From the NCBI GenBank assembly GCA_963721685.1, contig CAVRJJ010000002.1, positions 8,848 through 72,847 on the forward strand: a stretch of 64,000 nt of DNA, written 5' to 3'. A model generated the notes under the pieces. The model saw only the letters and a program-made list of their open reading frames with translations. It was not told the DNA's origin and did no database searches. Of this stretch, positions 16,521 through 62,143 are shown one piece after another; position 1 is the first letter of the stretch; each line of letters begins with the position of its first letter. Both the position numbers and the translations under genes were made by a program. The DNA is from an uncultured bacterium (lineage in GTDB: Bacteria; Patescibacteriota; Saccharimonadia; UBA4664; SCTI01).

Positions 16521-16523
16521 ATC

Positions 16524-43084: not shown

Positions 43085-43193
43085 GGCCCCTCCTTAGGGA
43101 GTCGAAGTTCTTATTCTCAGAGTCGAGCGTATAGCAATATTATAACATTTCAGATAGAGAGTGTCAATTAAAGAACCTTGTCACAAGCCAATA

Positions 43194-46100
43194 TTATTCA
43201 AGAATAATGTAGTCGAGCGTATAGGTGGTATTCGGTAGTACTACCTGGTCAGTTTTGAGCATAAAGTCGGTAAGCGACTTGCTGTGCGGAAAGATCTTGG
43301 CATCCAAGGTTAGTCCGTCTTGGCCAGACAAGACCACCCGCGGCACCTTACCAAACGGCTTGCTAAAGGTTATTTTTACCAGATGGCCGGCGGTTAGGTT
43401 GCTAGAACCAGCGACGAGAGTGATAGTACCGGATGTATCATTACCGTCTACAACCACGGTTGCACTCGTACCGCTAGCCGCCAGCACCTCAACTGTTGGA
43501 GTATCACCACCGCTAATGATATGCCCATCAACCTGCAGGTCTTGGAGCTGGGTTAGGCCTAGGACTACGAGATCGCCGTTAATGGTAGCGCTACCGGTGA
43601 CGGTGAGGGTTGTAATAGTGGCGGTACCAGAAACGTTGAGCTCGGCGAAGTCGGCAGTGCCGGAGACACTCAGACCACTTAAGGAGGCCATGCCGCCATT
43701 TTGGATAACACTGGTGATGCTAGGACCGTTGTAGTAACCGGGTTCGACAAAGACAATGACGCTTGTTTCCCCTGAGTTGGGATCCCAGGAGCCCAGGGCC
43801 TTACCAATGACAAAGCCGGATTGGGTGGCTTTCGTGGCTTTGCCGGGTTCGGATGAGGTTGTCAGATAGTCCCCGGCCTGGATGGGTTCTGAGCTTACGG
43901 CGATGTTAACCGGTACGCGGCCGTTGAGCGCTACCGGCATCGGGTTGTCTTCGGGCTTAATGTTATGGCCGGCTGAGGTGAAGTCGCCGTGGTTGTCGGA
44001 GACAATACCGACGGTGTTTACTTGGTAGGGGCTACTACTCTTAACCAGCTGGGTAACCTGGCCCTTGAGCTTGCCCCAGTCGATGTTGCCGTCGGTTGTA
44101 TCGTAAGTATTAACCATGGTAGTGCCAGTTACCACAATGTCGCCGTAGCCTATACCTGGAGCAACCGGATAGTCTTCAGCGTAGTCGGCGGCCGGAGCGG
44201 CGTTACAATCGCGCAACTCGTAGGCGGTGCCAGCCGTTGGCCCCGTGGCGTTGGCTAAGCTTGAACAGACCGCGTTAGTTGAGGCAGTATTACCCAAAGT
44301 TACTTTGACCGTACCGGAGGTGGTGTCGACTACCAGCAGGCCGTTACCGGCGGCGTTCTGAACCTGGAAGCCAGTGGCGGAGTTGGCGTCACTCTTGAAG
44401 AGCGAGGCACCATACACGGTTGTGCCTCCTTGGAAAGTGTTGTTGTAAGAGGTGACGGTGAGCTCGGTTTTACCGGAGGTCATGACACGGTTGCCAGTGC
44501 CAGTGATAGCGACGGCGACGAACATACCGTTGCCATAAGCTATGCCATCCCAACTATTATCCGCGGCGCTGGTACGGATGGCCCAGTTGATGCCGTCGGG
44601 GGAGGTCATTACACGGTTGCCAGTGCCATCATTGGATACCGCCACGAACAGGCCGTTGCCATAGGTGACACCGAGCCAGCCATTGTTTGCGGAGCTAGTG
44701 CGAATAGTCCAGCTAATGCCGTCAGGGCTGGTCATGACACGGTTGCCAGTACCAGAAGATGCTACGGCGACAAACATCCCGTTGCCGTAGGTAACGGAGT
44801 TCCACGCGTTATCCGCGGCGCTGGTGCGGATCGTCCAGCTCGTCCCATTAGTAGAGGTCATGACGCGGTTGCCGGTGCCAGTGATAGCGACGGCTACGAA
44901 CATACCATTGCCGTAAGTGACGGAGTACCAATCATTGTCCGCGGCGCTGGTGCGGGATGTCCAGTTAATGCCGTCGGGGCTAGTCATGACACGGTTGCCA
45001 GTGCCGGAAGATGCTACGGCGACAAACATCCCGTTGCCGTAGGTTACGGAGCGCCATGTGAGGGACGCTGCAGTCGTGCGGAGGGTCCAGGTTATGCCAT
45101 CGGGGGAGGTCATCGGAGCACCAGCATTCCCACTAATAGCGACAAATATCCCGTTGCCGTAGGCTACGGTTGTCCAGTTGTCATCCGCGGCGCTGGTGCG
45201 GGATGTCCAGTTAACGCCATCGGGGCTGGTCATGACGCGGTTGCCGGTGCCGGTGGCTGCAACGGCGACGAAAACCCCGTTACCATAGGCCACAGATCGC
45301 CATTCATTATCGGGGGCGCTGGTGCGGGAGGTCCAATTAGCGCCAGCAGTTATTAGATTGTCTGAAATAAGATCACCGCGAACGGTAATTCCACCTTGGT
45401 AGGTATTATTTGCCGGAACGACGGTCAATTCGGTTTTGCCGGAGGTCATGACGCGGTTGCCGGTGCCGTCTTCAGAGACAGCCACAAACAAACCATTGCC
45501 GTACGTAACGGAGCGCCAGGCGTTGGTTGTGGGGCTGGTGCGAGAGGTCCAGTTGATACCGTCGGGGGAGGTCATCACCTGACTGACAATGCCATCATAG
45601 GCCACCGCCACGAACAACCCATTGCCGTAGGTGACGGAGTCCCAGCTGGCATCCGAAGCGCTGGTGCGGATTGTCCAGGTTGTGCCGTTGGGGGAGGTCA
45701 TGACGCGGTTGCCGGTGCCGCTCGAAGACACCGCCACAAACAAGCCATTGCCGTAAGTAACGCTATACCAGTTGTTATCCGCGGCGCTGGTGCGTATGGT
45801 CCAGTTGATACCGTCGGGACTGGTCATCACCCGGTTGCCGGAGCCGGAGTATGCCACCGCTACAAACAACCCGTTGCCGTAGGTGACGGAGCGCCAAGAG
45901 TTGTTCGCAGCGCTGGTGCGGATGGTCCAGTTGATGCCGTCGGGGCTAGTCATCACCCGGTTGCCGGTGCCTGTTTGCGCCACCGCTACAAACAACCCGT
46001 TGCCGTAGGTGACGGACACCCACTCGTTATTCGCTGCGCTGGTGCGGATGGTCCAGTTGATGCCGTCGGGGGAGGTCATCACCAGGTTGCCGGAGCCGGA

Positions 46101-49100
46101 GTATGCCACCGCCACGAACAACCCGTTGCCGTAAGTGACGGCGTACCAGCCATTATCCGCGGCGCTGGTGCGGATGGTCCAGTTGATGCCGTCGGGGGAG
46201 GTCATCACCCGGTTGCCGGTGCCGTTGTCTGCTATCGCTACAAACAGCCCATTGCCGTAAGTAACGGACTTCCAGTCGTTATCCGCGGCACTATTGCGGG
46301 AGGTCCAGTCAATGCCTTTGGATAGCTCTACCCCCCCAACAGAGAGGGTTGCCGCCGAAAGGCTGCCAGTGAATAAGGCGCTTCCGCTAACACTCAAGCC
46401 ACCCTGAATACTCGCATCCCCTCCTATGCTCACATTTCTATTCACTCGTAGTGTATTTGTTTCAATGCTGCCGGTTTCAAGTTGCTGAATATAAGCTCCG
46501 CCGATATCGTAAATCTTCATTGTGGGGTTGAATGCACCTGCAACATTGTATAAGTAGCGGCCTTGCACCGAAATATCCTGAGTGCTCGCGATACTAGTAT
46601 CCTGCGCCAGCAAAACGGGGCTGGCAGGATTGCTAATATCATAGGTATACACACCACCAGTGCTTGAGGCATAGAGATACCTACCCTGTACCACAACAGA
46701 GGTAAGAACATCTCCCACCGATACATTAGTAACAAAAGTTGGACTAGTGGGATTTTTGATATCATAGACACCTAAGGTATTGTCTGTACTGCCATTAAGA
46801 ACATACGCATAACGTCCCTGAACGGCCAAGCCGTTTGGAGCAGTTCCAACTCCAACCGATCCCGCCAACACTGGACGGGATGGGCTACCTATATCGTAGA
46901 TTGTGAGCGTGGATGAAGAGTTATTTATCACATATGCGTAACGCCCTTGGATGATTAGATCAAACGGGTCAAGTCCGGTGGAGACGGTACCAGTTAAAAC
47001 CGGGGCGGCGGGATTACCGATGTCATAGACTGTCAAAACATCACTGGTTCCTACTACATACACGTAACGCCCTTGAACATAGAGTCCCCTGGCTCCACTT
47101 GGCACCGTTACCTGACCAGTTGCGTTAGGTGAAGCTGGATTGCTAACATCATAGATGCCTAGAATGCTATTGCTAAGAACATAGGCATAGCGGTCTTGGA
47201 CATATACATCCGTCGGATTTGCTACTGTTGACACTGTACCAGCTAAAACCGGGGCGGCGGGATTGCTCGTGTCATAAATTGATAAACTTGCTGCATCATC
47301 ATTTGCCACGTAGGCGTAGCGACCTTGAGTAAAAATCGATCTTGCTACTTGTAGACCAGCGCCAACTGCAACAGTACCAACGGCGGTAAGGCCGTTGATC
47401 TTCCCTGATACATAGAATTGGCCAGCCGCAGTACCAACCGCTCCAATTGAGGCCCTGCTATTAGTCGTATCTACGTTAAAAATATTAACACCAGCAGCAG
47501 CGTTTTGAACCTGAAATGCGCTGGTTGAATCGGTTTGATTACGAAACGTTGTACTTCCCCCGTTAGCAATAGTAAGGACATCGCGAGCGGTAGCGGTGGT
47601 ATCTCTTACCGTCAAGAGATTGCCTGAGCCAGCACTTTCAATACGCAGCCCTTCAACGGCGCCGGTGCTGAGTTGGTCAACTTTAAGGACAGCCCCGCTG
47701 GTAATGCCGCCGCTTGAGGGGTTTTGGAAGATTAAGTTACCGTCAGCGGAAGTCAGAGCCAGGGTGGCATCAGCGCTGTCTGCGTCGGCGGTATAGGCTT
47801 GTTGGAGAGTGGTGGTACCAGTACATCCAGCACTCGTACACACCCCAACTCCCCCAATGGTTAGGGTTGTTGTAGAAAGTGAGGTGTTTGAGCCGACGGT
47901 CATGGTGCTGGCACACTGCAAAGCTCCAGTTGCGTTAGTTAGGGTACACCCGCTGCCGGCAAAGCCACCCCCAAGCAATATATCGCCGGTACTGGTACCA
48001 CCTACTAATACTTGCCCGGTGCCGTTGCCATCGACGCTTATGTTGGTGTTGGTTCCACCGGCGGCAACCGTAAGGGCGCCGGTTCCCGAGATGGCGGTAC
48101 CGGAGACGTTAAGCGAGTTAACGGCTGAGGCGGTTAGGGTACCGCCGGAGACGTTTCCGCCGGAGAGCGTTCCGCCTGAAAGACTAGCTCCATCAATTGT
48201 ACCGCTAGCCACCAAGTTACCGGCCGCGGTAACACTAAACACGCTGGTTGGCGAACTGCCAGACTGCAAATCAAGCAAGTTGCCAGTCGGGCTAGCATTG
48301 GTATTAGAAGCGAATATCAGGGCTTGACCGGCAGATGGGTTGCCACTGGCGGTAACACGCAGGGTTGAGTTGGTATTGGTGCCGTTTACTAAGCTGAGTA
48401 CACCTGAGGCAACCGCGCTAGAAGAGTTGGTAAAGGTATAGAGGTTGCCCGCTGCCGTTACCGCGAAGGAGGAGGTATCAACGGCGTTTTTAGCGAGACC
48501 GGTAGCGCCCGAGGCCGTACATCCAGCACTCGTACACACCCCAACTCCCCCAATGGTTAGGGTTGTTGTAGAAAGTGAGGTGTTTGAGCCGACGGTCATG
48601 GTGCTGGCACACTGCAAAGCTCCAGTTGCGTTAGTTAGGGTACACCCGCTGCCGGCAAAGCCACCCCCAAGCAATATATCGCCGGTACTGGTACCACCTA
48701 CTAATACTTGCCCGGTGCCGTTGCCATCGACGCTTATGTTGGTGTTGGTTCCACCGGCGGCAACCGTAAGGGCGCCGGTTCCCGAGATGGCGGTACCGGA
48801 GACGTTAAGCGAGTTAACGGCTGAGGCGGTTAGGGTACCGCCGGAGACGTTTCCGCCGCTAAAGGTGCCGCCGGAAATGGTGGCAGAGTTAATCGTGCCG
48901 GTTGTCGTTAACGAGCCTTGGATGCTAGCGGCACCCGCTGCTTGAGTAAAAATTGAACTGCTTAAGTATGTAGTTGGCGCAGCGACGGCCGAAGTAGCAG
49001 TAGAAGGAGTAAACACATCAGCTGCTATCCCATCGTGCTTAATGACAATCGAGGCTGTTCCGGCAGTTGTCCCAGCTGATCGCCGCAAGCGCAACGAGAG

Positions 49101-50519
49101 CGTGGCTCCGCTCATATTTGCTTCTAACGTGAAATCATTACCACTATATGCCCCCGTGTCGCTGATTGGTTGAACAATTACCCAGGTATTGGTAGTTTGG
49201 TCATATTTTATGGGGAAGCTATAGTTCTTGCTTACTGAGAAGCCGCCATTAGGCACGGTAACGGATGCTTCAAAGCTTCCGGCTCCGTTTGACAGCGCAT
49301 AGGTCCCAATGTCGACTTCAGTCCCGACAACAGTTGGCATTGTACGCGTTAAGTTGGTGGTGAATGAATTAGTTGTTGTAATATTGGCAATGTTTAAAAG
49401 ATTTCCTGAAGCATCAATGCGCTGCGTACCAGCTGAAGCGCCAGTGTTAATTCCGGTAGTCGCGTTAAAAGTGGCCGCCCTTCCTGTGCCGTCGATATTA
49501 AAGCTCGCGGATGTCTGCGGACTGGCGTTTTGGTTCTGGATATAGCTGCCAGAGCTAGCTGCAGCAGTACAACCTGTTGAAGTACATACGCTCGTACCCC
49601 CAATGGTCAAAGCTGTTGTAGAAAGTGAGGTGTTGGCACCGGCTTTTAAGCTGACGCTGGCATTGACGCTGCCGGTTACCTGAAGAATGTCACCACCTGA
49701 AAGTGGTACCACGCCGATCCCAATTTTGGTGTTGGTAGTATCGGCGATAAAGAGATTGCCAGCACCAGAGGTATTTTGAATTTGGAAGGCGGTAGCGCTG
49801 GTACGGTTAATAGCTTGGTCACCCAGAGTGAAGGTGTTGGCGGCGTCGCGCCGGGCGTAGAGATCTCCATCTACCCCGTCAAGCTCATCGGCGTTAAAGG
49901 CATAGGGTGAAGCGGCGATTGGCTGGCGCGGGGTGAAGGGCCCTTCGGTAAAGACCGCGCAGCCGTTGGTGGCGCAGGTGGCGGTGGCCGGAGTGGGCAG
50001 CTCCACTTCAACGTAGAGTGAGATTTGGGTGAAATCAAAGGTGGAAAGCGAGGTTAAGGTGCCAAACTGCACGGAGAACAACCCGTTGGTCACCTGAATC
50101 CGATTATCGGTGCCGGTCCTGGTGTAATCTTCCTGGAACAGGTTGGTGCCTCCGCTCGGGGCACTCATGATCCTAAACTTGATGTTATACAAACCATCAG
50201 CCAGTGTGTTGCCGGCAGCGTTGGTGAGCCGACCCTGGAAGTTAATCTTGTAGGGAATAGTTGAAGCGGCGTCGGCCGGCGGAGACAACAGCGGAACCGT
50301 GGCGCTAACGGCTAGCCCTAAGATCAATACAACTATGGCAGCAATAGCCGGTTTCTTGGTTAAAAGAAGCTTACGCAGCCGCATGAACACATTTTTTCGA
50401 TACCCCAAAGCACCCGACCGGGTCGGGTTCATTGGTAACGGAATATTATGACTTCCTGAAGATTGCTTCTGGTAGTTACCGTTCAAATTGCCTATTGTCC
50501 TCTTTTGTATTTGCCTCAC
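43194..50519 (-). CDS. Giant (2441 aa) cell-surface repeat protein: N-terminal signal/anchor, tail-fibre-like beta-rich modules, 7 LVIVD repeats, two arrays of 8 x 38-aa Asp-box/BNR-like repeats, tail-fibre-like C-terminus
   Basis: - Signal-anchor: …MRLRKLLLTKKPAIAAIVVLILGLAVSATVPLLSPPADA.
- A ~130-aa module (…SGGTLSGGNVSGGTLTASAVNSLNVSGTAISGTGALTVAAGGTNTNISVDGNGTGQVLVGG…) is duplicated exactly.
- LVIVD-type blades: YAYV.N…L.IYDI.NP..PVL.G.V…G..P..L.VQGRYAYV, seven copies.
- Sixteen copies of W.SVTYGNG.FVAVA..G.GNRVMTSPDGINWTIRTSAA.N, arranged as 2 x 8 with each array ending GNRVMTSGKTELTV. The TSPDGINWT core resembles the Asp-box S-x-D-x-G-x-x-W. Confidence 0.75.
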   Translation of the reverse strand: MRQIQKRTIGNLNGNYQKQSSGSHNIPLPMNPTRSGALGYRKNVFMRLRKLLLTKKPAIAAIVVLILGLAVSATVPLLSPPADAASTIPYKINFQGRLTNAAGNTLADGLYNIKFRIMSAPSGGTNLFQEDYTRTGTDNRIQVTNGLFSVQFGTLTSLSTFDFTQISLYVEVELPTPATATCATNGCAVFTEGPFTPRQPIAASPYAFNADELDGVDGDLYARRDAANTFTLGDQAINRTSATAFQIQNTSGAGNLFIADTTNTKIGIGVVPLSGGDILQVTGSVNASVSLKAGANTSLSTTALTIGGTSVCTSTGCTAAASSGSYIQNQNASPQTSASFNIDGTGRAATFNATTGINTGASAGTQRIDASGNLLNIANITTTNSFTTNLTRTMPTVVGTEVDIGTYALSNGAGSFEASVTVPNGGFSVSKNYSFPIKYDQTTNTWVIVQPISDTGAYSGNDFTLEANMSGATLSLRLRRSAGTTAGTASIVIKHDGIAADVFTPSTATSAVAAPTTYLSSSIFTQAAGAASIQGSLTTTGTINSATISGGTFSGGNVSGGTLTASAVNSLNVSGTAISGTGALTVAAGGTNTNISVDGNGTGQVLVGGTSTGDILLGGGFAGSGCTLTNATGALQCASTMTVGSNTSLSTTTLTIGGVGVCTSAGCTASGATGLAKNAVDTSSFAVTAAGNLYTFTNSSSAVASGVLSLVNGTNTNSTLRVTASGNPSAGQALIFASNTNASPTGNLLDLQSGSSPTSVFSVTAAGNLVASGTIDGASLSGGTLSGGNVSGGTLTASAVNSLNVSGTAISGTGALTVAAGGTNTNISVDGNGTGQVLVGGTSTGDILLGGGFAGSGCTLTNATGALQCASTMTVGSNTSLSTTTLTIGGVGVCTSAGCTGTTTLQQAYTADADSADATLALTSADGNLIFQNPSSGGITSGAVLKVDQLSTGAVEGLRIESAGSGNLLTVRDTTATARDVLTIANGGSTTFRNQTDSTSAFQVQNAAAGVNIFNVDTTNSRASIGAVGTAAGQFYVSGKINGLTAVGTVAVGAGLQVARSIFTQGRYAYVANDDAASLSIYDTSNPAAPVLAGTVSTVANPTDVYVQDRYAYVLSNSILGIYDVSNPASPNATGQVTVPSGARGLYVQGRYVYVVGTSDVLTVYDIGNPAAPVLTGTVSTGLDPFDLIIQGRYAYVINNSSSTLTIYDIGSPSRPVLAGSVGVGTAPNGLAVQGRYAYVLNGSTDNTLGVYDIKNPTSPTFVTNVSVGDVLTSVVVQGRYLYASSTGGVYTYDISNPASPVLLAQDTSIASTQDISVQGRYLYNVAGAFNPTMKIYDIGGAYIQQLETGSIETNTLRVNRNVSIGGDASIQGGLSVSGSALFTGSLSAATLSVGGVELSKGIDWTSRNSAADNDWKSVTYGNGLFVAIADNGTGNRVMTSPDGINWTIRTSAADNGWYAVTYGNGLFVAVAYSGSGNLVMTSPDGINWTIRTSAANNEWVSVTYGNGLFVAVAQTGTGNRVMTSPDGINWTIRTSAANNSWRSVTYGNGLFVAVAYSGSGNRVMTSPDGINWTIRTSAADNNWYSVTYGNGLFVAVSSSGTGNRVMTSPNGTTWTIRTSASDASWDSVTYGNGLFVAVAYDGIVSQVMTSPDGINWTSRTSPTTNAWRSVTYGNGLFVAVSEDGTGNRVMTSGKTELTVVPANNTYQGGITVRGDLISDNLITAGANWTSRTSAPDNEWRSVAYGNGVFVAVAATGTGNRVMTSPDGVNWTSRTSAADDNWTTVAYGNGIFVAISGNAGAPMTSPDGITWTLRTTAASLTWRSVTYGNGMFVAVASSGTGNRVMTSPDGINWTSRTSAADNDWYSVTYGNGMFVAVAITGTGNRVMTSTNGTSWTIRTSAADNAWNSVTYGNGMFVAVASSGTGNRVMTSPDGISWTIRTSSANNGWLGVTYGNGLFVAVSNDGTGNRVMTSPDGINWAIRTSAADNSWDGIAYGNGMFVAVAITGTGNRVMTSGKTELTVTSYNNTFQGGTTVYGASLFKSDANSATGFQVQNAAGNGLLVVDTTSGTVKVTLGNTASTNAVCSSLANATGPTAGTAYELRDCNAAPAADYAEDYPVAPGIGYGDIVVTGTTMVNTYDTTDGNIDWGKLKGQVTQLVKSSSPYQVNTVGIVSDNHGDFTSAGHNIKPEDNPMPVALNGRVPVNIAVSSEPIQAGDYLTTSSEPGKATKATQSGFVIGKALGSWDPNSGETSVIVFVEPGYYNGPSITSVIQNGGMASLSGLSVSGTADFAELNVSGTATITTLTVTGSATINGDLVVLGLTQLQDLQVDGHIISGGDTPTVEVLAASGTSATVVVDGNDTSGTITLVAGSSNLTAGHLVKITFSKPFGKVPRVVLSGQDGLTLDAKIFPHSKSLTDFMLKTDQVVLPNTTYTLDYIILE
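47819..48166. repeat. Copy 1 of a ~347-bp perfect intragenic direct repeat inside the giant gene
   Basis: The sequence gtacatccagcactcgtacacaccccaactcccccaatggttagggttgttgtagaaagtgaggtgtttgagccgacggtcatggtgctggc…gagacgtttccgcc recurs at 48515. The plus-strand ORFs 47809.. and 48445.. in the six-frame track share a 113-aa identical segment, which gives the repeat extent. Confidence 0.85.
48515..48862. repeat. Copy 2 of the ~347-bp perfect direct repeat (696-bp period)
   Basis: As above. The two copies diverge immediately after …gagacgtttccgcc. Confidence 0.85.
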
Positions 50520-50622
50520 ACCTAGCTGTAACGGGTTACAGTAAGATGTAGCTTAATTTTACCTCTTATGCTTACCTATTGCAAACCAGTTATGCTAATA
50601 ATTGACGAACAAATGATTCCAG

Positions 50623-51501
50623 TTATTTTTTGTGTCGTTTTTTACCTTTGCGAAGCCAATAAAAATAGGTTGCGATCATAATGAGCAGCATCGCGAGCAC
50701 AAACCGCCAATAGCCGGTAACCGCGAAGACATAGGCGGTTTTTGATTTGCTGGGGCTGGTAGTTGAATCAATAACCTTGACCGGTACAATGCCCAAGAAA
50801 CTCCCTTTCCTGTCTACTTGGATAACGCGGCTATTTTGTGGCAGCACCAATGGCCCGCGCACCCTGGCTGGCTTACCGAAAAAGCCGGTTTTTAGCTGGA
50901 GCTTAGGGTTAAACGCGATCGGCTGGGAACCGCTGGCAGTATTTTCATACTCAACTTTGCCGGCAATGCCATTCCCTAAAGCCACAAACGGCAGGTGCAT
51001 CCTGCTCACCCGCCCATCCTTAGTCCCGCCCCCGCCAATATCCAGAATAAACAAGGTGCCTACCCTGGCCAAAGCCGCCACCTGCGCTCCGCTTCCACCC
51101 GACTTAGCGGGCATGGTAGTAAAAAATAAGGCTCCGTAGACCCCGCCGCGCGGCAGCTTATTAGGGTCGATGGTAAATGCCACCCGGATAGCTTCGCGCG
51201 GGCCAAGCTCAAATTCTGAAACATCGGTAGTGATGCCGGCACGCAACGCTTCACTCGGGGAAAAAGCTAAGTTGCCGTCATTATCAATCTGCTGGAATGC
51301 CTCCACGCTCGATCTGAGCGTTAAAGTGCTGGTGGTGGGGTTGGAGACATCAACATGCCCAGATTTTTTGGTACCCAGGGGAATCGATTCCTGATACTGC
51401 AGGGGGGCTATCTTGAGGGCTATGGGCGCGGGGGCAGCCGCGGTGCCAGTACCCCCGATGCCCAAAGTGATCACCAGAATGGTAATAAGACGCTTAATCA
51501 T
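50623..51501 (-). CDS. Cell-surface protein with signal peptide, beta-sandwich-like body and a C-terminal TM anchor with basic tail (DUF916/DUF3324-like topology)
   Basis: - N-terminal signal peptide: MIKRLITILVITLGIGGTGTAAA.
- Body: …IAPLQYQESIPLGTKKSGHVDVSNPTTSTLTL….
- C-terminal anchor: WRFVLAMLLIMIATYFYWL-RKGKKRHKK.
Its stop overlaps the start of the next gene by 4 nt. Confidence 0.5.
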   Translation of the reverse strand: MIKRLITILVITLGIGGTGTAAAPAPIALKIAPLQYQESIPLGTKKSGHVDVSNPTTSTLTLRSSVEAFQQIDNDGNLAFSPSEALRAGITTDVSEFELGPREAIRVAFTIDPNKLPRGGVYGALFFTTMPAKSGGSGAQVAALARVGTLFILDIGGGGTKDGRVSRMHLPFVALGNGIAGKVEYENTASGSQPIAFNPKLQLKTGFFGKPARVRGPLVLPQNSRVIQVDRKGSFLGIVPVKVIDSTTSPSKSKTAYVFAVTGYWRFVLAMLLIMIATYFYWLRKGKKRHKK

Positions 51502-52202
51502 GGCTTGGTGGTGGCGGTAAAGGTCACGTTATTGGTATAATTACCGGCTTTCTGGCTGCTGGCAGTATCGAGGCGAAACTGCATGGTGGTGACATCGCTA
51601 GCTCCGCCCGAAAAGCCGTTCTTGGTGTGGAATGTGGTAGCGGCGCCTGGAATCGCGGCGTACTTGTAATTAGGGTTTGTCCCCCATTTTATGTCAACAC
51701 TGGTGCCGGAGGTGATGGTAAAGCCAAGCCCCTGGGTTGTTCCTTCAACCCACAACGCCGGGGCGGCGATGGCGGCAGCAATGGCGGCGATGGTGGTAGT
51801 AGTGTCGGTGTGGGTAAGGTTATTGTTCTGGTTAATCGCTAAGTCGTATCCTGGAGCGTCGGTATAGACAGTGGACTGTATCGTGGCGTTTTGGGAAGTT
51901 CCAGGCACAACCGAAGGAATTGATACGGTGCCGGTACTAAGCGTAAGCTGGACCGCCTGCTCCAGCTGCGCAACATAGCCTTGGGTGAGCTTGTAACTGG
52001 TACTTGTTCCCGAACCGACAGCCGCCTCACCCCCGGAATCGACTAGCTTATAGCTTGTGGAGCTACCTTGCCCTCCAAAATTATTAGCAACGTTCGGATC
52101 CAGCCGGTAGCTAGGGCTTGTTAATACTCCCGCCCCAACCGCGGTTGGTATAACCGCAAGTGCCATAACAGCTGCTATTCGTATGTGCCCACGCGTCAAC
52201 AT
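51498..52202 (-). CDS. Small secreted surface protein, WxL-domain-like (C-terminal …AGNYTNNVTFTATTKP)
   Basis: Signal peptide (IAAVMALAVIPTAVGAG), a Thr/Ser/Asn-rich beta body, an internal ALWVEGTTQGLGFT motif and the C-terminal motif AGNYTNNVTFTATTKP. This resembles the WxL-protein C-terminal consensus A-G-T-Y-T-G-T-V-T-W-T-L-x-D-A-P as recalled from memory. Confidence 0.45.
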   Translation of the reverse strand: MLTRGHIRIAAVMALAVIPTAVGAGVLTSPSYRLDPNVANNFGGQGSSTSYKLVDSGGEAAVGSGTSTSYKLTQGYVAQLEQAVQLTLSTGTVSIPSVVPGTSQNATIQSTVYTDAPGYDLAINQNNNLTHTDTTTTIAAIAAAIAAPALWVEGTTQGLGFTITSGTSVDIKWGTNPNYKYAAIPGAATTFHTKNGFSGGASDVTTMQFRLDTASSQKAGNYTNNVTFTATTKP

Positions 52203-52251
52203 CTCTTATAATTCTAACGCTTTGCCTGCAATCTTTCCACCCCTCACGCCT

Positions 52252-54462: not shown

Positions 54463-55333
54463 TTTTGGGCCTACTGAAATACGCGTACGCGCCTAAGGCA
54501 CCAACAGCCAGAAGCATTAGCAGAAAGGCGGTGGAAGAAAGAACCAGCACATGGCGGGTTGGAAGCTTTTCCGTCTTATCGAAGTAATGCACGGTTCCGC
54601 CTAGCTTAAAGAATCCAAAAGCCGGTGCCTTATCCCACGTTAAAGCAATCCTGCGAGGGGCATTTGGCAAAACTACGAGGTTATTATTGAAACGGTATTT
54701 TTCGTTCCCAAAAAAATCCGTAATTACGTATTTTACATCGGCAAAATAATGGACATTACCGGTGTTGACCATGCGAACGCTGGCTTCAACGGGCGCCCCA
54801 TTTTGCCACATCTTGGCGTTGAAGCTATCGAGCTTACCTACTCTTTCCAAGACACCGTCAACGGTAACGTAAAGGTGCGATCCTACCCGTTTGATGCTGG
54901 CGATTCCGATGGAATTGGGCTTACCTTTAGTGGAAACAAACAGCGCGGCATAGTGGGTGCCCGGGGCGGCATTTTGCGGCACCGTAATGGTGTATCCAAT
55001 ATTTGTTCTCTCTTGCGGTTTTAACGTAAAAGTTGTTTTTTCAAACTGCACCCAGCTTTCCAGCTGCTCCGGGTTGGGGGTGTTGGCATAATTACGCTCA
55101 TACTCTTCATTTTTTATGGTGGCTCCGCCAGCGCTGGTGGTGTATTCGCTTAGTTCGGTACCGTCATTTTTCACCGTTAGCTTACCGGAAATCCTCTGCC
55201 CCGCCTTAACGCTATGCTCGGTATAGGTAGGCGAAACGGCCGCTCCGGTACCAAGTTCAGCCGCCAGTGCTTGCATAGGCACCACAAGCAGCACCAGCGC
55301 CAGAAACAGATACAAAAACTTCGTTACTCTCAT
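54446..55333 (-). CDS. DUF916/DUF3324-like cell-surface protein (CscA-like): signal peptide, two beta-sandwich domains, C-terminal TM anchor with RRR tail
   Basis: - Signal peptide: MRVTKFLYLFLALVLLVVPMQALA.
- …AAVSPTYTEHSVKAGQRISGKLTVKNDGTE…, resembling the DUF916 pattern x-V-x-P-x…K-x-G-Q…V-x-V-x-N.
- C-terminus: VLVLSSTAFLLMLLAVGALGAYAYF-SRPKNVRRR. Confidence 0.5.
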   Translation of the reverse strand: MRVTKFLYLFLALVLLVVPMQALAAELGTGAAVSPTYTEHSVKAGQRISGKLTVKNDGTELSEYTTSAGGATIKNEEYERNYANTPNPEQLESWVQFEKTTFTLKPQERTNIGYTITVPQNAAPGTHYAALFVSTKGKPNSIGIASIKRVGSHLYVTVDGVLERVGKLDSFNAKMWQNGAPVEASVRMVNTGNVHYFADVKYVITDFFGNEKYRFNNNLVVLPNAPRRIALTWDKAPAFGFFKLGGTVHYFDKTEKLPTRHVLVLSSTAFLLMLLAVGALGAYAYFSRPKNVRRR

Positions 55334-55413
55334 TACTAAGATAGTAGCACAAGCATAAGAATTGATTAAATAAAACGTACCGCTTAAGGGCGGTGCGTTT
55401 TATGGATTAAATT

Positions 55414-56022
55414 TTATAGGGCAAGAGCGGTATAAAGCACGGTACCGGTGTAGGTGCCGTTGGGCTTAGTGATATCAGCTTTAGCGCTGTACCACACGGT
55501 GTGGGTATTCCCCGCGTACGGGCCAGTAGCCCGGGCGCTTAGCAACTGAGGTGCGGCGTTTTGTGGAACCAAAGAAAAGGTACGGGATGTACAGTTGGCT
55601 CCGGTAGTTGAGGTGGGGCCAGCCCCAAAGGAACCATGGCTATCTTCGCGCCATCCCCAGGCATTGGTTGGTAATACTGCTGGCGATGCAAAGGTAGCAG
55701 TGGCGTTAGCCAGGGTGTTGGCACCGTTGGCCAAGGTATTTTGGGCAGCTGTGGTGTGAGCCACATTGTTGTCTTGAATAGATAACGAATACCCATTGGC
55801 GGCATTGGTGGTAACGGTTACTGTATCACTAGCGCAAACTTGGTCGGGGCTGGCCGTAGGCGCTAGGTTAATAGTTACGGGCGAGGTGGTTGTAAAGGTT
55901 GAAATCGAACTGGCGATCACCGCGTTCACAACCGTGGTAGCGGTGGCTGCCGAAGCAGCCAAAGGAGCAAGCACGATAGCTGCTGCCCCTAAGGTTAATA
56001 CGGTTTTCCTAGGAACTCTCAT
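55414..56022 (-). CDS. Small secreted WxL-domain-like surface protein (paralogue 1 of a tandem pair)
   Basis: Signal peptide MRVPRKTVLTLGAAAIVLAPLAASA, a Thr/Ala/Asn-rich body, an internal NAWGWREDSHG and a C-terminal KPNGTYTGTVLYTALAL (compare the WxL C-terminal motif GTYTGTVTWTL). It is ~90% identical to 56158..56784. Confidence 0.5.
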   Translation of the reverse strand: MRVPRKTVLTLGAAAIVLAPLAASAATATTVVNAVIASSISTFTTTSPVTINLAPTASPDQVCASDTVTVTTNAANGYSLSIQDNNVAHTTAAQNTLANGANTLANATATFASPAVLPTNAWGWREDSHGSFGAGPTSTTGANCTSRTFSLVPQNAAPQLLSARATGPYAGNTHTVWYSAKADITKPNGTYTGTVLYTALAL

Positions 56023-56157
56023 TTCATGACCCTTTCGACGTTTTCATTATTAGAGGCCACTTCACTTCTTATATAAGACCATAACACAAGCATAAGCATT
56101 AACCTAACAAAAAGCCCGGCTATCCGGGCTTTTTTGCCTTACCGAGAATAAATTACT

Positions 56158-56784
56158 TTACAGGGCGAGGGCCGTGTAAAGTACCGTAGCGGTGTAAGTA
56201 CCGTTCGGCTTGGTACTGTCAGCCTTAGCACTGTACCACACGGTGTGGGTATTCCCCGCGTACGGGCCAGTAGCCCGGGCGCTTAGCAACTGAGGAGCGG
56301 CGTTTTGAGGAACTAATGAGAATGTCGCCGCGGTACAACCTGCGCCGGTGGTGGTGGTAGGACCAGCACCAAAGGTACCATGGCTATCTTCGCGCCATCC
56401 CCAGGAGTTAAGGGGCAATGCTGCTGGTGATGCAAAGGTAGCAGTGGCGTTAGCCAGGGTATTTGCTCCATTAGCCAGGGTGTTCATAGCGGCGGTAGTG
56501 TGAGCTACGTTATTGTCTTGAATCGACAATGAATACCCGTTGGCGGCGTTGGTGCTAACCGTTACCGTATCGCTGGCACAAACTTGGTCTGGGCTGGCCG
56601 TAGGCGCTAGGTTAATAGTTACGGGCGAGGTGGTTGTAAAGGTTGAGATCGAACTGGCGATCACCGCGTTCACAACCGTGGTAGCGGTGGCTGCCGATGC
56701 CGCCAACGGTGCAAACACTATGGCCGCCGCTCCCAGGGTTAATGCTGTTCTTCTTGGCACTTTCATTTTGTTTTTTTCCTTCAT
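56158..56784 (-). CDS. Small secreted WxL-domain-like surface protein (paralogue 2; the likely true start is the MKVPRR Met at ~56766)
   Basis: The architecture matches paralogue 1 (…NSWGWREDSHGTFGAG…KPNGTYTATVLYTALAL). Long identical DNA stretches confirm a tandem duplication, for example cacggtgtgggtattccccgcgtacgggccagtagcccgggcgcttagcaactgagg. Confidence 0.5.
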   Translation of the reverse strand: MKEKNKMKVPRRTALTLGAAAIVFAPLAASAATATTVVNAVIASSISTFTTTSPVTINLAPTASPDQVCASDTVTVSTNAANGYSLSIQDNNVAHTTAAMNTLANGANTLANATATFASPAALPLNSWGWREDSHGTFGAGPTTTTGAGCTAATFSLVPQNAAPQLLSARATGPYAGNTHTVWYSAKADSTKPNGTYTATVLYTALAL

Positions 56785-56904
56785 ACTTAAAAGTGATGGA
56801 TTTATTAGATCTTAAAACAAGAATACAGCAAGCATAAGCTCTTTGTCAATGCTTTTTCTTGATTGCGGTCCCATTGCATAATATATGTATACAACCACGC
56901 TTCA

Positions 56905-59900
56905 CTATTGCGGTGCGAAGTAGTTAAACTCATACAACTGGCCGGAAGCCGGAGCGCTATTGAAGGTCACATTGAGAGTTGTGGTAGTGGCACTCATATG
57001 GGCAGACATATTGGCGCTGACTGTATTGGTAGGACTAAATACAATTTTTGGTGCTGCGCCAAAGGCAGTATTTAAGGTGACACTACATTGGTCTCCGCTG
57101 GATATGCCTGTCCCCCCGGGGGTAATTTGAATCGTGCCGGCGGTATCTGTCCCTGAAACCACGCACGCCCCAGTGGTTCCCGCTGCTGCGGCGGCCGTGC
57201 CAGTGGGGCTGCCACCGCCAGTAATGAGGTGCCCATTGACCGTTAAATTACCTGAAACCGCTAATTGAGCCACAGTCACCGTCATATTGGAGGTATCGGC
57301 GATAAACAGTGGGTTATTATCTTGGTCTTGGATTTGGAACGCGGTGGTGGAATCGCTTGTGTTACGGAATAATTGGTCGTTCCCGGCAAAGACTTGGCTA
57401 TTGCGTGTCAGTAGGGCTACGCTGCTTGAGAGCACACTGTTATTAACTGTTCCGGTGGACAGGTTGCTGGCGTTAAGCCCGCTTAATCCGGAGCCAACAC
57501 CGGTAATAGTCCCAGTGCCAGCATTAATATTGGTGTTGTCGGTATCAATCCCCGCCTCCACATTTAAGGCACCTGTAATAGTTGCTATTCCGTTAACGGT
57601 TAGGGTCGTCGCGCCACCGTCTTGGGAGAGAATGGAGTTAGTTATATTTTGCGAGTTGGAAAACAACGGAATAAAGTTAGCGGTCGCCCCGCTTGAAGTA
57701 ACAGTCCCGCTTGCACAGCCCTGGAAGGTGGGGTTACTACTGGGCCCATTGGAAATCAAACACTGCCCTGCCGATCCCGGAGTTGTAACGCTAACCGGGC
57801 CACTACCATTGCCATAAAGGATGCCGTTAGCGGTAAAACTCGTAACGCCTGTGCCGCCACTGGCAACCGGCAGCGTCCCCGTAAAAGTAATATTTCCGGC
57901 GTTACTAAGCGCGATGTTACCTGACGCTGATACGGCAACCGTCCCGCTCTGGTTTGGTATTACAATCGTGGCGTTCCCGGCGGCGCTTTGGAAGATAAGG
58001 TTGGATGAAAATAAACCGCTGTAGGAGTTGAGGCTAATACTTGTTCCCTGCACTGAGACACCGTTACTGGTAGAGCCTATGGTTAGGCTGCTGGTTGGGG
58101 CAATGGTATTGGTGGTCAAGAACCCTAGCGTGGCGCTAGCAAACGTTGGTGTAGACCCAGTTGCCAAATTTTGCGGCAATGACAGCGTAATGGTAGTGCC
58201 AACGGTCCCCACGCTTACCTGGTCAGCCGTACCGGCCAGAGTTAGCGCTCCAGTTGCCAAGTTAACCGACTGCACACCTGCCACAGCGCTTAAACAGTTT
58301 CCGCTATCCAAACAGACCTCACCACTATCATCCGGCAATGTGATTGACTGGTTGGCGGTCGGTGTGGCAAAGCCTAGTGTTGTAGAAAAAGAGCCATTTG
58401 TGACACTAAACGTTGAGTTATCGGATCCTTGTAGGATGAGTGTTTCACCTGAAGTACCAACAGTTAGGTCTGAGCCATCGCCAACAATGGCATCGGCGGC
58501 TAATGTGCCCGCCACGGTTAAAACTGCGCCCGATTCACTAGCGATGGAATCGGTTAAGGTATTTGTAATAGTGTCGAATTTAACCAGATTACCTGCCGTT
58601 TGGCTAGTACCGCTAGATAGGCCGCTACTCCCCGGACACGAACCAAAGGCCGCCCCGGTTACTGTAGACATCAAGCACTCCCCCGGTGCTATGGCCGCGC
58701 CGCCGCTGGCATCGAGCTGGACCAGCTCACCATCGCCATTAAAGGTGTTCCCCTGGGTAGTTATGCCAGCGCCCAAGCTAACCACACCGCCAGTTACACT
58801 AAAATCAGCACTATCAAACTGGGCAATCCCTTTAGCTGATGTAGAAGCGTCATCAATAGTGATGGTAGTTGCGTTTATTGCGCTCGAATTATTGAGCGTA
58901 ATAATGCCGCTAATGCCATTAACCGAGGCGACGCCGCCGCCGGCTGATTCAATCGTGATAGTTCCACCCGGCACGTCATTGACAATATTAATCCCACTGC
59001 CCGCCAGCACAGTCACTGAATTGGTAATGCCGTTGACATCGGTTACACCGGATCCGCCGCCGCTACCATCACTGGTAAGGCAGGTTAAGCAGGTTATGTC
59101 CCCAAGAGCATTGAGTGAAATTGCACCTGAAGCCGAAACCGCCACTAAACCGGAAGCGTCGGGAATCACTATGCTATTTACGCCGGTGGGGGCGTCAAAG
59201 CTAAGCGTTGTACTATTTACTCCGCTTGTCCCACTCAGCGTTGTGGTGGACGCAAATCCCTGGAGTGTCAGTGACTGGCTGGTACTGCCCACGGTAAGTG
59301 CCGCGGAGGGATTAATGCTGGTAAGCGCGGTTAAGCTGGTTATATCGGCGTTAGCCCCCAGCTCGGCAGCTCCCAAATTTGTTCGCGCCCCTAAGGCCGT
59401 GGTGGCACCTGTGCCGCCTTTCAGCAACGAGACCGTACCCAAACTCACCGCTCCGGCGGTAACCGAGAAATCGGTGGCGCTGAAGGAAGCGATTCCCTTA
59501 GCCAGGGTTGTAGCGTTATCAATCGTAATAGCCGTCCCCACACCTGAACTGTTGTTGATGGTTAAGGCCCCAACCAAGCCCTCCACGCTTGTCACGCCAG
59601 AACCGGTTGTCGCGTAGCCACAGTTGTTTGTCGATAGACAAACAGTGCCGCTATCGTTGGGGAGGGAGATTGTTCGGTTTGCCGTGGGCGGGATGAAGTT
59701 AAATGTTGTGGTAAAGGCTCCGGACCGGGCACTCAGGGAGGTCGCGGCGTTTCCCTGCAAGGTAAGGCTTTGGCTGGTTGAGCCAATCGCTAAGGCTGCT
59801 CCAGGGGTAATGGCGGTCAGCCCGGTAAGGGAGGTGATGTCGCTGTTTAGCCCACTCGCGGCCGCGCCAAGGTTGGTGCGCGCCCCACTAGCGGTTGCAG

Positions 59901-61095
59901 CGTTCGTACCACCTTTAGCTATTGGCACCACATTTAGGCTGACCGCCCCGCCTGCTAGAAGAAAATCAGTTGCGCTGAAGGAGGCTATGCCTTTCGTTGT
60001 GGTTGTCGCATCATCAATCGTAATAGTTGTGCCCACCGCGGTGGCGTTGGCAATATCCAACGCTCCGCTTACGCCATTAAGGCTGGTTACCGAAGCCGTA
60101 CCGCTGCAAGAGCCAAATACCGGGGCGGTAGCCGTACTTACCAAGCACAATCCCGGTCCGGCAGCAGCGACAGTACTGATAGGGCCGGAACCGTTGCCCA
60201 GCAATACCCCATTGGCCGTTAAACTGTTAACCCCGGTTCCTCCGCTGGCAACCGCTAAGGCCGTCCCCAGGTTCAGTCCGTTAAAGGTGGGCGACGAGCT
60301 GGGGGCGATGCTTTGAGGCAGACTTAGTACAATATTTCCGGTGGACTGATTAACGCTGATTTGCCCGGGACTCCCACTTAATGCCGTGACGCCGGTGTTT
60401 GCGATGGTTAACCCATTAATCGCGATACCCCCACCGGCGCTAAAACTCAGGGCGCCGGTTTGGCCCTGTACGCTGAGCACTGCGCTGGTTGGAGCGGTTG
60501 AACTTAACACACCGCCAGCTACACTTAAACCGCTGCCTACCGCGATATCGCCGCTTAAACCGCCAATTGAATTAACCCGCTGACTGTTATCGGCGAGATT
60601 AATGAAGCTGGTGCCGTTATAGTAATACAACTGGCGGTCGGCCTGGGACAAATAGAGCTGTCCTACGATAGGCGCGGCCGGCTGTTCGCCCGGGGTTATC
60701 ACCGCCGAATCGTTAATTCGCAGCTGCCCGTTAATTTGTAGCTGTTGACTTTTATCCAAGCTCAGCTCACCGTTACGGGCGAACTCACCGAGCGACAAGC
60801 TGGTAACTTTATAGCTTGAGGCGCTTGATGCCGGGTCGTCACTTCCCCGGCCCTGGGTGAGCACCACGAAAGCGGCTATTGCCAGAAAGATGAGAAGAGT
60901 TATAACTCCGGCAATAATGGTAGCGGAATGGCCAAAAAAGCGATGATGCCGACCCGATGGCGGCACATCCGGCCCGGACCCCAGCGGGTTTAAGCTTGTT
61001 ACCGGCTGGGGGGTAGCAATGCTGCTCGCTACTCCTGAGGCCAGGTTGACTGGATCAACCGAAGACGAGGGCGATATTGAATCCCTTGGCATCAT
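56905..61095 (-). CDS. Giant (1396 aa) membrane-anchored tail-fibre-like surface protein with repeated K-G-G-T-G-A-T-x-A-x-G-A-R-T-N-L-G-A-A motifs
   Basis: - Signal-anchor: HSATIIAGVITLLIFLAIAAFVVL.
- Three copies of the module …TKGIASFSATDF…AGGAVSL…IAKGGTNAATASGARTNLGAA… (second copy LLKGGTGATTALGARTNLGAA), as seen in phage tail-fibre and related fibrous proteins.
- The module recurs: FQIQDQDNNPLFIADTSNMTV.
- Gly/Ser/Thr-rich beta composition throughout. Confidence 0.65.
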   Translation of the reverse strand: MMPRDSISPSSSVDPVNLASGVASSIATPQPVTSLNPLGSGPDVPPSGRHHRFFGHSATIIAGVITLLIFLAIAAFVVLTQGRGSDDPASSASSYKVTSLSLGEFARNGELSLDKSQQLQINGQLRINDSAVITPGEQPAAPIVGQLYLSQADRQLYYYNGTSFINLADNSQRVNSIGGLSGDIAVGSGLSVAGGVLSSTAPTSAVLSVQGQTGALSFSAGGGIAINGLTIANTGVTALSGSPGQISVNQSTGNIVLSLPQSIAPSSSPTFNGLNLGTALAVASGGTGVNSLTANGVLLGNGSGPISTVAAAGPGLCLVSTATAPVFGSCSGTASVTSLNGVSGALDIANATAVGTTITIDDATTTTKGIASFSATDFLLAGGAVSLNVVPIAKGGTNAATASGARTNLGAAASGLNSDITSLTGLTAITPGAALAIGSTSQSLTLQGNAATSLSARSGAFTTTFNFIPPTANRTISLPNDSGTVCLSTNNCGYATTGSGVTSVEGLVGALTINNSSGVGTAITIDNATTLAKGIASFSATDFSVTAGAVSLGTVSLLKGGTGATTALGARTNLGAAELGANADITSLTALTSINPSAALTVGSTSQSLTLQGFASTTTLSGTSGVNSTTLSFDAPTGVNSIVIPDASGLVAVSASGAISLNALGDITCLTCLTSDGSGGGSGVTDVNGITNSVTVLAGSGINIVNDVPGGTITIESAGGGVASVNGISGIITLNNSSAINATTITIDDASTSAKGIAQFDSADFSVTGGVVSLGAGITTQGNTFNGDGELVQLDASGGAAIAPGECLMSTVTGAAFGSCPGSSGLSSGTSQTAGNLVKFDTITNTLTDSIASESGAVLTVAGTLAADAIVGDGSDLTVGTSGETLILQGSDNSTFSVTNGSFSTTLGFATPTANQSITLPDDSGEVCLDSGNCLSAVAGVQSVNLATGALTLAGTADQVSVGTVGTTITLSLPQNLATGSTPTFASATLGFLTTNTIAPTSSLTIGSTSNGVSVQGTSISLNSYSGLFSSNLIFQSAAGNATIVIPNQSGTVAVSASGNIALSNAGNITFTGTLPVASGGTGVTSFTANGILYGNGSGPVSVTTPGSAGQCLISNGPSSNPTFQGCASGTVTSSGATANFIPLFSNSQNITNSILSQDGGATTLTVNGIATITGALNVEAGIDTDNTNINAGTGTITGVGSGLSGLNASNLSTGTVNNSVLSSSVALLTRNSQVFAGNDQLFRNTSDSTTAFQIQDQDNNPLFIADTSNMTVTVAQLAVSGNLTVNGHLITGGGSPTGTAAAAAGTTGACVVSGTDTAGTIQITPGGTGISSGDQCSVTLNTAFGAAPKIVFSPTNTVSANMSAHMSATTTTLNVTFNSAPASGQLYEFNYFAPQ

Positions 61096-62063: not shown

Positions 62064-62143
62064 TTTCACCTCCAGGCACTGTTCATAGGGGTTTATTATA
62101 CCAGTTACGCTTTCGGTTTGGCTAGCGGTAAAAAAATAACTGC

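Follow-up and report, generated by a model that had tools for sequence, protein, structure and literature searches.

The window analysed here is a stretch of 64,000 nucleotides (nt) from an uncultured bacterium (GenBank assembly GCA_963721685.1, contig CAVRJJ010000002.1, positions 8,848 to 72,847), and it carries an array of eight consecutive open reading frames (ORFs), all on the minus strand (positions 43194-61095 of the window). Most likely, the product of this array is a thin pilus for adhesion, of the Pam type lately reported from ultrasmall parasitic bacteria. We consider it probable that the locus is a chromosomal Pam-type operon of a Saccharibacterium, specifying a chaperone-assisted, usher-less donor-strand pilus together with two co-encoded giant adhesin-like fibres. 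It is best read as a minimal variant of the Pam pilus with single-domain pilins and not as an orthologous copy. A first-pass annotation, made from the letters alone, had interpreted the same genes as an uncharacterised apparatus resembling the WxL/DUF916 surface complexes of Firmicutes.

Pam pili became known as late as 2026, and from a single cultivated species, Ca. Mycosynbacter amalyticus (bioRxiv 10.64898/2026.03.03.709456). Cryo-electron microscopy of this organism revealed that the pilins PamA and PamB form filaments whose subunits are joined by donor-strand exchange. The parts proposed for the system comprise the pilins PamA, PamB and PamE, the PapD/FimC-like chaperones PamC and PamD, anchored in the membrane, the single-domain tip protein PamT and the RbmA-like membrane anchor PamR; furthermore, a ‘tail fibre-like protein’ is a conserved neighbour of pam operons. 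The NCBIfam ‘CPR Pam pilus’ models, named after the candidate phyla radiation (CPR), derive from the same preprint. Since this pilus is the closest described relative of the array, the label ‘uncharacterised’ no longer holds.

The steps of assembly that we propose are inferred from signal peptides and transmembrane (TM) topology, predicted folds, gene order, N-terminal strands, homology to the WxL-interacting proteins (WxLIPs) of Gram-positive gut bacteria and sub-threshold relatedness to Pam proteins. All components, which carry signal peptides in their sequences, would be exported by the Sec pathway. Two near-identical pilins of ~170 mature residues would emerge with an incomplete immunoglobulin (Ig)-like fold, which the adjacent membrane-tethered two-Ig chaperone would transiently complete by β-strand insertion. 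During polymerisation the N-terminal extension of the next pilin would replace the chaperone strand (donor-strand exchange). The donor strand would be N-terminal and not an inter-domain linker, because the pilins have a single domain. A paralogue of 234 amino acids (aa) that lacks the donor extension may start the fibre at its distal tip, served by its own translationally coupled chaperone. A 736-aa PamR-like protein would cap the last pilin with its N-terminal strand and fasten the fibre to the cell membrane. Lastly, a 1396-aa anchored fibre and a secreted 2441-aa protein would act in host binding, either alongside the pilus or attached to it.

The major pilin candidates are the 208-aa and 202-aa proteins. 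The former comprises a signal peptide, an N-terminal extension, ATATTVVNAVIASSIS, as candidate for the donor strand, and a body of Ig-like fold that ends in the conserved C-terminal strand G-T-Y-T-x-x-V-x-Y-T-A. The latter is its tandem paralogue (92% identity in amino acids, 84% in nucleotides). In these pilins a single Ig-like domain follows an extension of ~18 residues, for a mature length of ~170 residues. Conserved in the pilins, the extension ‘TTINAxIxSVIS’ is an N-terminal strand of the mature proteins in which hydrophobic residues alternate; the PamR-like proteins share it. A C-terminal TM helix is present in only one of 114 pilins. The C-terminal strand, which reads G-x-Y-T-x-x-V-x-Y-T-A in more general form, is common to all three small proteins (208, 202 and 234 aa) and conserved across 121 homologues, in which G195, Y197, Y203, T204 and A205 are invariant; the shared motif picked out in the first-pass annotation is therefore real.

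Relatedness to the Pam pilins is detectable at the level of profiles. The NCBIfam model CPR_Pam_pilin_C (NF058581) matches the 202-aa and 208-aa proteins over positions 13-146 of its 148 with 20 bits (E-values 4-5.5e-4; cut-off 55 bits). Relatives score 18-40 bits, with E-values down to 3e-10 and end-to-end coverage, always below 55 bits. As these scores are consistent across members and yet stay under the cut-off, they indicate relatedness at the level of the superfamily. An AlphaFold2 model of the 208-aa protein (pLDDT 83) points in the same direction: the top 30 structural matches found by Foldseek are almost all chaperone-usher pilins or TasA, and the model resembles the donor-strand fibre subunits TLP-1b, CfaB, CsuA/B, FimG, CS20, CanX, CupE and PapA. 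SCPU, the archaic chaperone-usher pilin family, is the commonest weak Pfam match (16 of 121 members). Single-sequence searches of the PDB with the 208-, 234- and 295-aa proteins returned nothing useful.

At an E-value of at most 1e-3 the pilin family counts 2872 representatives. In many proteins elsewhere the pilin domain forms the C-terminal ~170 residues of chains of 343-2607 aa, whose N-terminal parts contain TolB-like β-propellers, collagen-like and transglutaminase-like regions. These long proteins resemble adhesins with a built-in pilin domain, and also the ‘large WxL’ proteins.

The 234-aa protein is a pilin paralogue (pilin profile E-value 3e-10) in which the ‘TTINAxI’ type of N-terminal strand is not present. 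The NCBIfam PamT model (NF058579) matches it with 30 bits and an E-value of 2.6e-7 (cut-off 240 bits), and members of its family reach 2.5e-10. We regard it as a candidate for a PamT-like tip subunit. In most related operons the tip gene encodes 440-720 aa, with an insert of 200-430 residues between the conserved N- and C-terminal parts (for instance L009:12370-13776, L023:7435-9075 and L055:10912-13077); the 234-aa protein of the window is the minimal form.

The candidate chaperones A and B (295 and 292 aa) are 18-20% identical and built alike: a signal peptide precedes two Ig-like domains, and a TM helix at the C-terminus is followed by a basic K/R tail. The TM helix and charged tail had been noticed at first pass, and the helix recurs in 103 of 104 homologues. 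An AlphaFold2 model of the 295-aa protein (pLDDT 89) shows two β-sandwich domains and the C-terminal helix. Its best Foldseek matches are the crystal structures of an Enterococcus faecium WxLIP, alone (9i1y) and WxL-bound (9i25), with an E-value of 1.3e-11; next comes RbmA, followed by FimC, CfaA, PapD, CsuC, SafB, DraB and Caf1M at ~1e-8. When the chaperone family profile was compared with PDB sequences, EfmWxLIP1 was the sole significant match (E-value 8.8e-8) and covered both domains. Alignment by hhalign with seven WxLIPs taken from Firmicute plasmids gave a probability of 97.6% and P 2.7e-12 over 225 columns, against P 0.08-0.3 for controls. In Pfam the signal lies below threshold: PF06030 (DUF916) reaches 21.1 bits on a window protein (cut-off 27.3) and matches 10 of 29 family members, and PF11797 (DUF3324) gives no match. 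Together, these comparisons support the view that the 292- and 295-aa proteins are remote homologues of WxLIP (DUF916-DUF3324), and here the first-pass assignment stands. We propose both as candidates for membrane-tethered chaperones, PapD/FimC-like in the way described for PamC and PamD.

The 736-aa protein is a candidate for a PamR-like anchor or terminator. After a signal peptide, it displays a pilin-like mature N-terminal strand (‘TSIINVNVC’), four Ig-like repeats (Big_6/Glucodextran_B in Pfam), internal TM helices and two CarboxypepD_reg domains. Its membrane helices are internal and multiple instead of single and C-terminal, in line with the polytopic Ig-like membrane protein originally described. 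The NCBIfam PamR model (NF058578) matches it with 103.6 bits and an E-value of 9e-30 (cut-off 300 bits). In other loci the equivalent position is taken by shorter homologues (~260-300 aa), of which 21 of 24 carry a TM helix at the C-terminus and one matches PamR with an E-value of 4.3e-53. Their mature N-terminus, ‘T-x-[VI]-N-A-x-[IV]-C’, is close to the pilin extension.

Gene order is conserved in related genomes. We collected related loci with the pilin alignment and counted synteny over 72 Saccharibacteria loci. In 69 of the 72, a chaperone gene directly follows the pilin gene (median gap 15 nt). A tip gene is present in 28 loci; in 25 of these the second chaperone gene comes directly after it, and 24 show the same 4-nt overlap as the window. 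A protein of 260-300 aa is usually encoded between the genes of the first chaperone and the tip. Downstream of chaperone B, a homologue of the N-terminal ~250 residues of the 2441-aa giant is encoded in 16 of the 17 loci with enough sequence, while the remainder of this protein is variable (~260 to 2300 aa across loci). The core order (pilin, chaperone, anchor, tip, chaperone, giant-N-terminal-domain protein) recurs in dozens of Saccharibacteria genomes, which answers the synteny check that the first-pass annotation had suggested. A second, common type of operon occurs in 16 loci (among them L012, L016-L019, L021, L024, L028, L033, L037, L040, L047 and L054). It consists of pilin, chaperone, pilin and a 300-530-aa protein (commonly 360-430) whose family is unassigned, and has no tip gene, second chaperone or giant-type gene.

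The pilin-chaperone pairing bears on a first alternative, in which the fibre assembles by donor-strand exchange without a chaperone, as in the TasA, TLP-1 or archaeal Taf/Abp types, and the two-Ig TM proteins serve as anchors or adhesins. We give this reading little credence. Taf and TasA fibres do form without PapD-like chaperones, and the NCBIfam model of TafC, the tip adhesin of haloarchaeal Tat-fimbriae, matches 21 of 140 locus proteins (best E-value 1.4e-14). However, the two-Ig proteins match both the chaperones PapD, FimC and CsuC and WxLIP, pilin and chaperone genes are paired almost everywhere, and a second chaperone copy is reserved for the tip subunit. WxLIP is itself predicted to complete the β-sandwich of its WxL partner with an inserted parallel strand (PMC10599100) and has been crystallised in complex with a WxL protein (PDB 9i25). 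Moreover, a SipW-type signal peptidase was not seen in the locus.

A second alternative retains the first-pass interpretation, namely a Firmicute-style WxL/Csc complex in which the small proteins are non-polymerising wall-associated domains, held on the surface by a WxLIP-like partner, and the complex displays large adhesins. The WxLIP homology of the 292- and 295-aa proteins favours it, as does gene order: in five of six Firmicute loci examined, the gene of a small β-protein precedes that of a two-Ig TM protein, although in the sixth (L082) no annotated WxL gene lies beside the WxLIP gene. The occurrence of the small-protein domain at the C-terminus of long multi-domain proteins, noted above, is a further parallel, and a local likeness exists between the motifs ‘SDTVTVSTN..GYxL’ and ‘VxxSDxRG..GWxL’. 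The small proteins themselves tell against it. PF13731 (WxL) matches neither the window proteins nor any of the 121 family members at an E-value of at most 1. When the pilins were aligned by hhalign with a WxL alignment built from Firmicute plasmids and validated on the solved WxL chain 9i25_A (E-value 5e-8), P was 0.15 and the sole WxL-like signal was a 20-column local motif. The W-x-L motif is absent from the small proteins, and an LPxTG-like motif, as expected of the small CscD protein, was found in none of ten proteins checked. Among the top structural matches of the pilin model are donor-strand pilins and not 9i25_A. WxL membership of the small proteins, as inferred in the first-pass annotation, is rejected by Pfam, by two-way searches between hidden Markov models (HMMs) and sequences, by hhalign and by the structural match lists. 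Hassan & Williamson define a WxL cluster by at least one WxLIP and at least two WxL proteins within four genes, and by the family's own definition this locus is not one. In addition, the nearest CPR relatives are proven filaments. An explicit tip paralogue, an anchor and a conserved N-terminal donor-like strand, all recognised from sequence, imply a polymer, and for this reason we prefer a filament to a wall-bound complex. Overall, we consider the wall-bound WxL/Csc complex unlikely.

Of the two giant proteins, the 2441-aa one contains an LVIVD region (E-value 2.3e-29) and EPTP-like and Beta_propel matches in Pfam. Seven ‘QGRYxY’ units and 14 ‘YGNGxFVA’ units in 42-residue periods suggest three seven-bladed propellers, one of LVIVD type and two of Asp-box type; 12 of the 14 ‘YGNGxFVA’ blades contain an Asp-box-like motif (‘SxDGxxW’), and both kinds of propeller had been named at first pass. 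Comparison with homologues indicates that the protein probably starts at Met46 (~50384) with a cleavable signal peptide. The very conserved mature N-terminus, ‘TIPYKINFQGRL’, and a conserved N-terminal domain (approximately residues 85-330) are followed by fibre-like repeats and then by the propellers. A faint H-type lectin match is also present. The 1396-aa protein has ~57 cytoplasmic residues and one TM helix (residues 60-78); the long fibre outside the cell includes three ‘KGIAxF’ repeats. Its tail-fibre-type repeats and a weak PHROGs tail-fibre match (E-value 7.8e-4) bear out its initial description as a membrane-anchored, tail-fibre-like protein. No homologue of it was found in 73 related loci. 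Both giants share a C-terminal domain of ~90 residues (1283-1371 in the 1396-aa and 2327-2417 in the 2441-aa protein; 36% identity, E-value 6e-13), encoded at 56905-57200 and 43194-43500. The pilin profile finds no pilin-like domain in either of them. As for the N-terminal domain of the 2441-aa protein, a marginal hhalign likeness to pilins (P 1e-3, 23 columns, probability 20%) was not used. It is plausible that the 1396-aa fibre and the 2441-aa propeller protein are host-binding elements.

Tail-fibre-type repeats raise a third alternative, which the first-pass annotation had itself named: a prophage or phage-derived tail module made of tail fibres and baseplate-like proteins. It can draw on the repeats of the 1396-aa protein and on weak PHROGs matches, and the N-terminal region of the 2441-aa giant presumably resembles the N-terminal domains of tail-fibre-like proteins. 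However, capsid, portal, terminase, tape-measure and integrase genes were not found in the flanks or elsewhere in the window, and the PHROGs search of the locus proteins gave only weak or function-less matches, with nothing phage-specific. The flanks contain housekeeping genes (RmuC, an aminoacyl-tRNA synthetase, a PD-(D/E)XK nuclease, tRNA-Pro, gyrA/gyrB and PheRS), and the window DNA as a whole is chromosomal, with ribosomal RNA (rRNA) genes, gyrA/gyrB, PheRS, IMP dehydrogenase, RmuC and an L,D-transpeptidase. Furthermore, more than 70 genomes of Saccharibacteria conserve the core, whose proteins consistently bear signal peptides and TM anchors. Because phage genes and phage-specific matches are missing and the context is one of housekeeping, we reject a phage origin, which is extremely improbable and effectively refuted.

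Taxon labels of homologues are nearly all Saccharibacteria/Saccharimonadia, so the CPR affiliation suspected at first pass is borne out, and the distribution agrees with the CPR restriction of Pam (mainly Saccharimonadia and Microgenomatia). At least 60 of the 73 related loci are labelled Saccharibacteria/Saccharimonadales and about six are untyped (‘uncultured bacterium’). The rest come from a few other CPR (Parcubacteria, Patescibacteria group) or bear stray labels on short contigs (Verrucomicrobiia, Dongiaceae, Chloroflexi).

Coordinates are collected in Table 1. All eight ORFs exist at the positions first annotated. In coordinate order, the intergenic distances are 103, -4, 49, -17, 80, 135 and 120 nt; the spacing of 0-130 nt given at first pass is correct for most gaps and is exceeded by the one of 135 nt. 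Both reported overlaps are confirmed, the 4-nt one between the stop of the tip gene and the start of the chaperone B gene (51501/51498) and the 17-nt one between the start of the 736-aa gene and the gene of chaperone A (54462/54446), and they recur in independent gene calls from a second contig. According to other gene callers, the 295-aa protein starts 6 codons and the 234-aa protein 12 codons further on. The 120-nt gap before the pilin genes contains a σ70-like promoter site and a terminator-like hairpin directly follows them. Both are consensus matches, and in the promoter and terminator scan the site counts of the region are not clearly above those of shuffled sequences, so they are listed as candidates only. 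This arrangement would fit high pilin expression. By analogy with pap and fim operons, the hairpin may work as an attenuator and so give a high ratio of pilin to chaperone.

Table 1. Genes of the array and candidate regulatory sites (positions in the window)
Feature	Position	Strand	Remark
Giant fibre/propeller protein	43194..50519	-	2441 aa as listed
Chaperone candidate B	50623..51501	-	292 aa
PamT-like tip subunit candidate	51498..52202	-	234 aa
PamR-like anchor/terminator candidate	52252..54462	-	736 aa
Chaperone candidate A	54446..55333	-	295 aa
Terminator-like hairpin + T-run	55379..55394	-	directly after pilin genes; consensus match only
Major pilin candidate 2	55414..56022	-	202 aa
Major pilin candidate 1	56158..56784	-	208 aa
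σ70-like promoter candidate TTGACA-18-TATTCT	56820..56849	-	120-nt gap before pilin genes; consensus match only
Membrane-anchored tail-fibre-like protein	56905..61095	-	1396 aa

Several points weigh against a Pam-type pilus. The Pam models score 20 against 55, 30 against 240 and 104 against 300 bits, which speaks for membership at the superfamily level only, and no NCBIfam PamC or PamD model matched among 54 chaperone homologues. The N-terminal β-sandwich domain and linker donor strand by which PamA, PamB and PamE are defined are missing from the pilins, and no such two-domain pilin (N-terminal β-sandwich, linker donor strand, C-terminal domain) is encoded in the window. The window also contains no ATP synthase genes, which are reported to be conserved neighbours of Pam loci. 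Kinship to the M. amalyticus proteins was judged through NCBIfam models and published descriptions. Strand insertion, the order of the subunits and the functions assigned to tip and anchor are predictions. Finally, the giants are known as co-encoded proteins, and the physical joining of either to the pilus is conjecture.

The link to WxLIP is the new element of this analysis: in the literature searched, we found no paper that relates Pam chaperones to WxLIP. The 2023 study that named WxLIP (PMC10599100) proposes that the protein binds peptidoglycan and the host and that its TM helix inserts into the host membrane; it never mentions chaperones, and the Pam preprint (bioRxiv 10.64898/2026.03.03.709456) never mentions WxL or DUF916. 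In our own interpretation, strand insertion of the WxLIP type is a chaperone-type interaction. We tentatively suggest, at somewhat less than an even chance, that the CPR two-Ig proteins and the WxLIPs of Firmicutes and Actinobacteria are one family with one job, that of usher-less membrane-anchored chaperones which complete the β-sandwich of a partner by strand insertion. On this view, a single ancient system by which monoderm bacteria assemble surface fibres would have WxL clusters and Pam pili as its two branches. If so, WxLIP would be a chaperone or assembly factor and not the peptidoglycan- and host-binding adhesin that is currently proposed, and the single-domain-pilin operon described here would stand near the minimal form of the shared system.

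Such a link would matter on both sides. Saccharibacteria live attached to host bacteria, and their mode of attachment is largely unknown. The window presents a simpler and apparently very common form of the Pam machinery, with a six-gene core in dozens of genomes and ~2900 sequence clusters that contain the pilin domain. The variable giant fibre and propeller proteins coupled to this core are good candidates for host recognition. WxLIPs are widespread in enterococci, listeriae and lactobacilli, where they are implicated in adhesion and virulence. If homology means a shared mechanism, the WxL-WxLIP structures model the CPR chaperone step and, conversely, Pam filaments suggest that WxL clusters may assemble by strand complementation.

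Other features of the window were recorded in passing. Directly downstream of the 2441-aa giant gene lies the gene of a secreted 554-aa protein (41420-43084, minus strand), which contains an HExxH motif (HELTH) and has no Pfam match. Because this gene has a promoter-like site of its own (43139-43167; a perfect 12/12 extended -10 σ70-like match), it is probably a separate transcription unit. Upstream of the array, the listed 324-aa ORF (61239-62219, minus strand) overlaps with its 5′ end the tRNA-Pro gene on the same strand (62144-62219), so the true start must be further downstream. Its product is a membrane protein with two C-terminal TM helices, and the only homologue found adjoins a related pilus locus (L050).

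Further features lie at a greater distance from the array. Four secreted proteins with a high content of Gly, Ser, Thr and Asn are encoded one after another at 15419-18128 (minus strand), none with a Pfam family. The 192- and 222-aa members are paralogues made of repeated ‘ISTTGPGSxNTITSTN...ATVAGNTxGGSATSG’ units, a C-terminal TM helix is present on the 222- and 285-aa members, and the set may form another surface structure. A 453-aa protein (23281-24642, plus strand) contains a DUF11-type repeat, a module of surface proteins, and no relation to the pilus array was found; the start of the 181-aa ORF that follows overlaps the stop of its gene by one base. A 1584-aa protein (25189-29943, minus strand) includes a region similar to HerA-like ATPases and type IV secretion coupling proteins (T4SS-DNA_transf, E-value 7.7e-7) and may be part of a patescibacterial type IV secretion machinery. 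The rRNA genes (region 1072-11731) are unusually arranged, with the 16S gene at 10127-11731 and the 23S gene at 1374-4761. The two share the minus strand and are separated by 5.4 kb, which harbour the IMP dehydrogenase gene (5582-7183, minus strand) and, on the opposite strand, the tRNA-Ile and tRNA-Ala genes (7791-7974). The 23S match spans 3388 nt against a model of 2925 nt, which implies ~460 nt of inserted sequence.

Four known systems can be compared with the array. WxL/Csc clusters (PMC10599100; PDB 9i1y and 9i25) have a homologous two-Ig, C-terminally TM-anchored partner, encoded immediately downstream of a small secreted β-protein whose sandwich it is thought to complete by strand insertion, and the domain of the small protein also caps large adhesins at their C-terminus. 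In contrast to these clusters, the small proteins here are not detectably WxL, an LPXTG protein is missing, the organism belongs to the CPR and not to the Firmicutes, and the tip, anchor and donor-like strand deduced for this locus point to a filament.

TasA of Bacillus, the TLP-1a/b pond fibrils and the haloarchaeal Tat-fimbriae (TafA/C/E/F) share with the array a monoderm or archaeal envelope and the N-terminal donor-strand exchange that is proposed here. The Tat-fimbriae also possess a membrane-protein terminator (TafF) and a tip adhesin (TafC). However, these systems work without PapD/WxLIP-like chaperones, Taf subunits are exported by Tat, and TasA uses SipW.

Bacteria of the CPR are monoderm, which makes an usher unnecessary. 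No locus protein matches the usher family (PapC/FimD) in Pfam or NCBIfam. Chaperone-usher pili otherwise follow a similar scheme: Ig-like pilins whose N-terminus is extended and whose C-terminal strand is conserved, two-Ig chaperones, a tip-to-shaft-to-terminator logic, and a pilin gene that comes first and is followed by a hairpin. They differ from the array in having an outer membrane and an usher, whereas the chaperones here are tethered to the cytoplasmic membrane and the terminator is itself a membrane protein. Sequence kinship is limited to the weak SCPU matches.

The Pam pilus is the closest of the four. Its pilins have two domains, a mass of 39-55 kDa and a donor strand in the linker, whereas those of the array have one domain; the PamR-like protein is here a polytopic chain of 736 aa with CarboxypepD_reg domains; the order of genes differs, with a triple-propeller gene of 2441 aa included in the array and joined to the tip module; and all HMM matches lie below the NCBIfam cut-offs. 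Common to both are a CPR (Saccharimonadia) host, Sec-exported parts without an usher, two PapD/FimC-like chaperones with a C-terminal TM helix (PamC and PamD being compared by description), a candidate for a PamT-like single-domain tip, another for a PamR-like anchor that has membrane helices and an N-terminal strand, pilins related at superfamily level to the C-terminal domain of the Pam pilins, and an adjoining tail-fibre-like protein.

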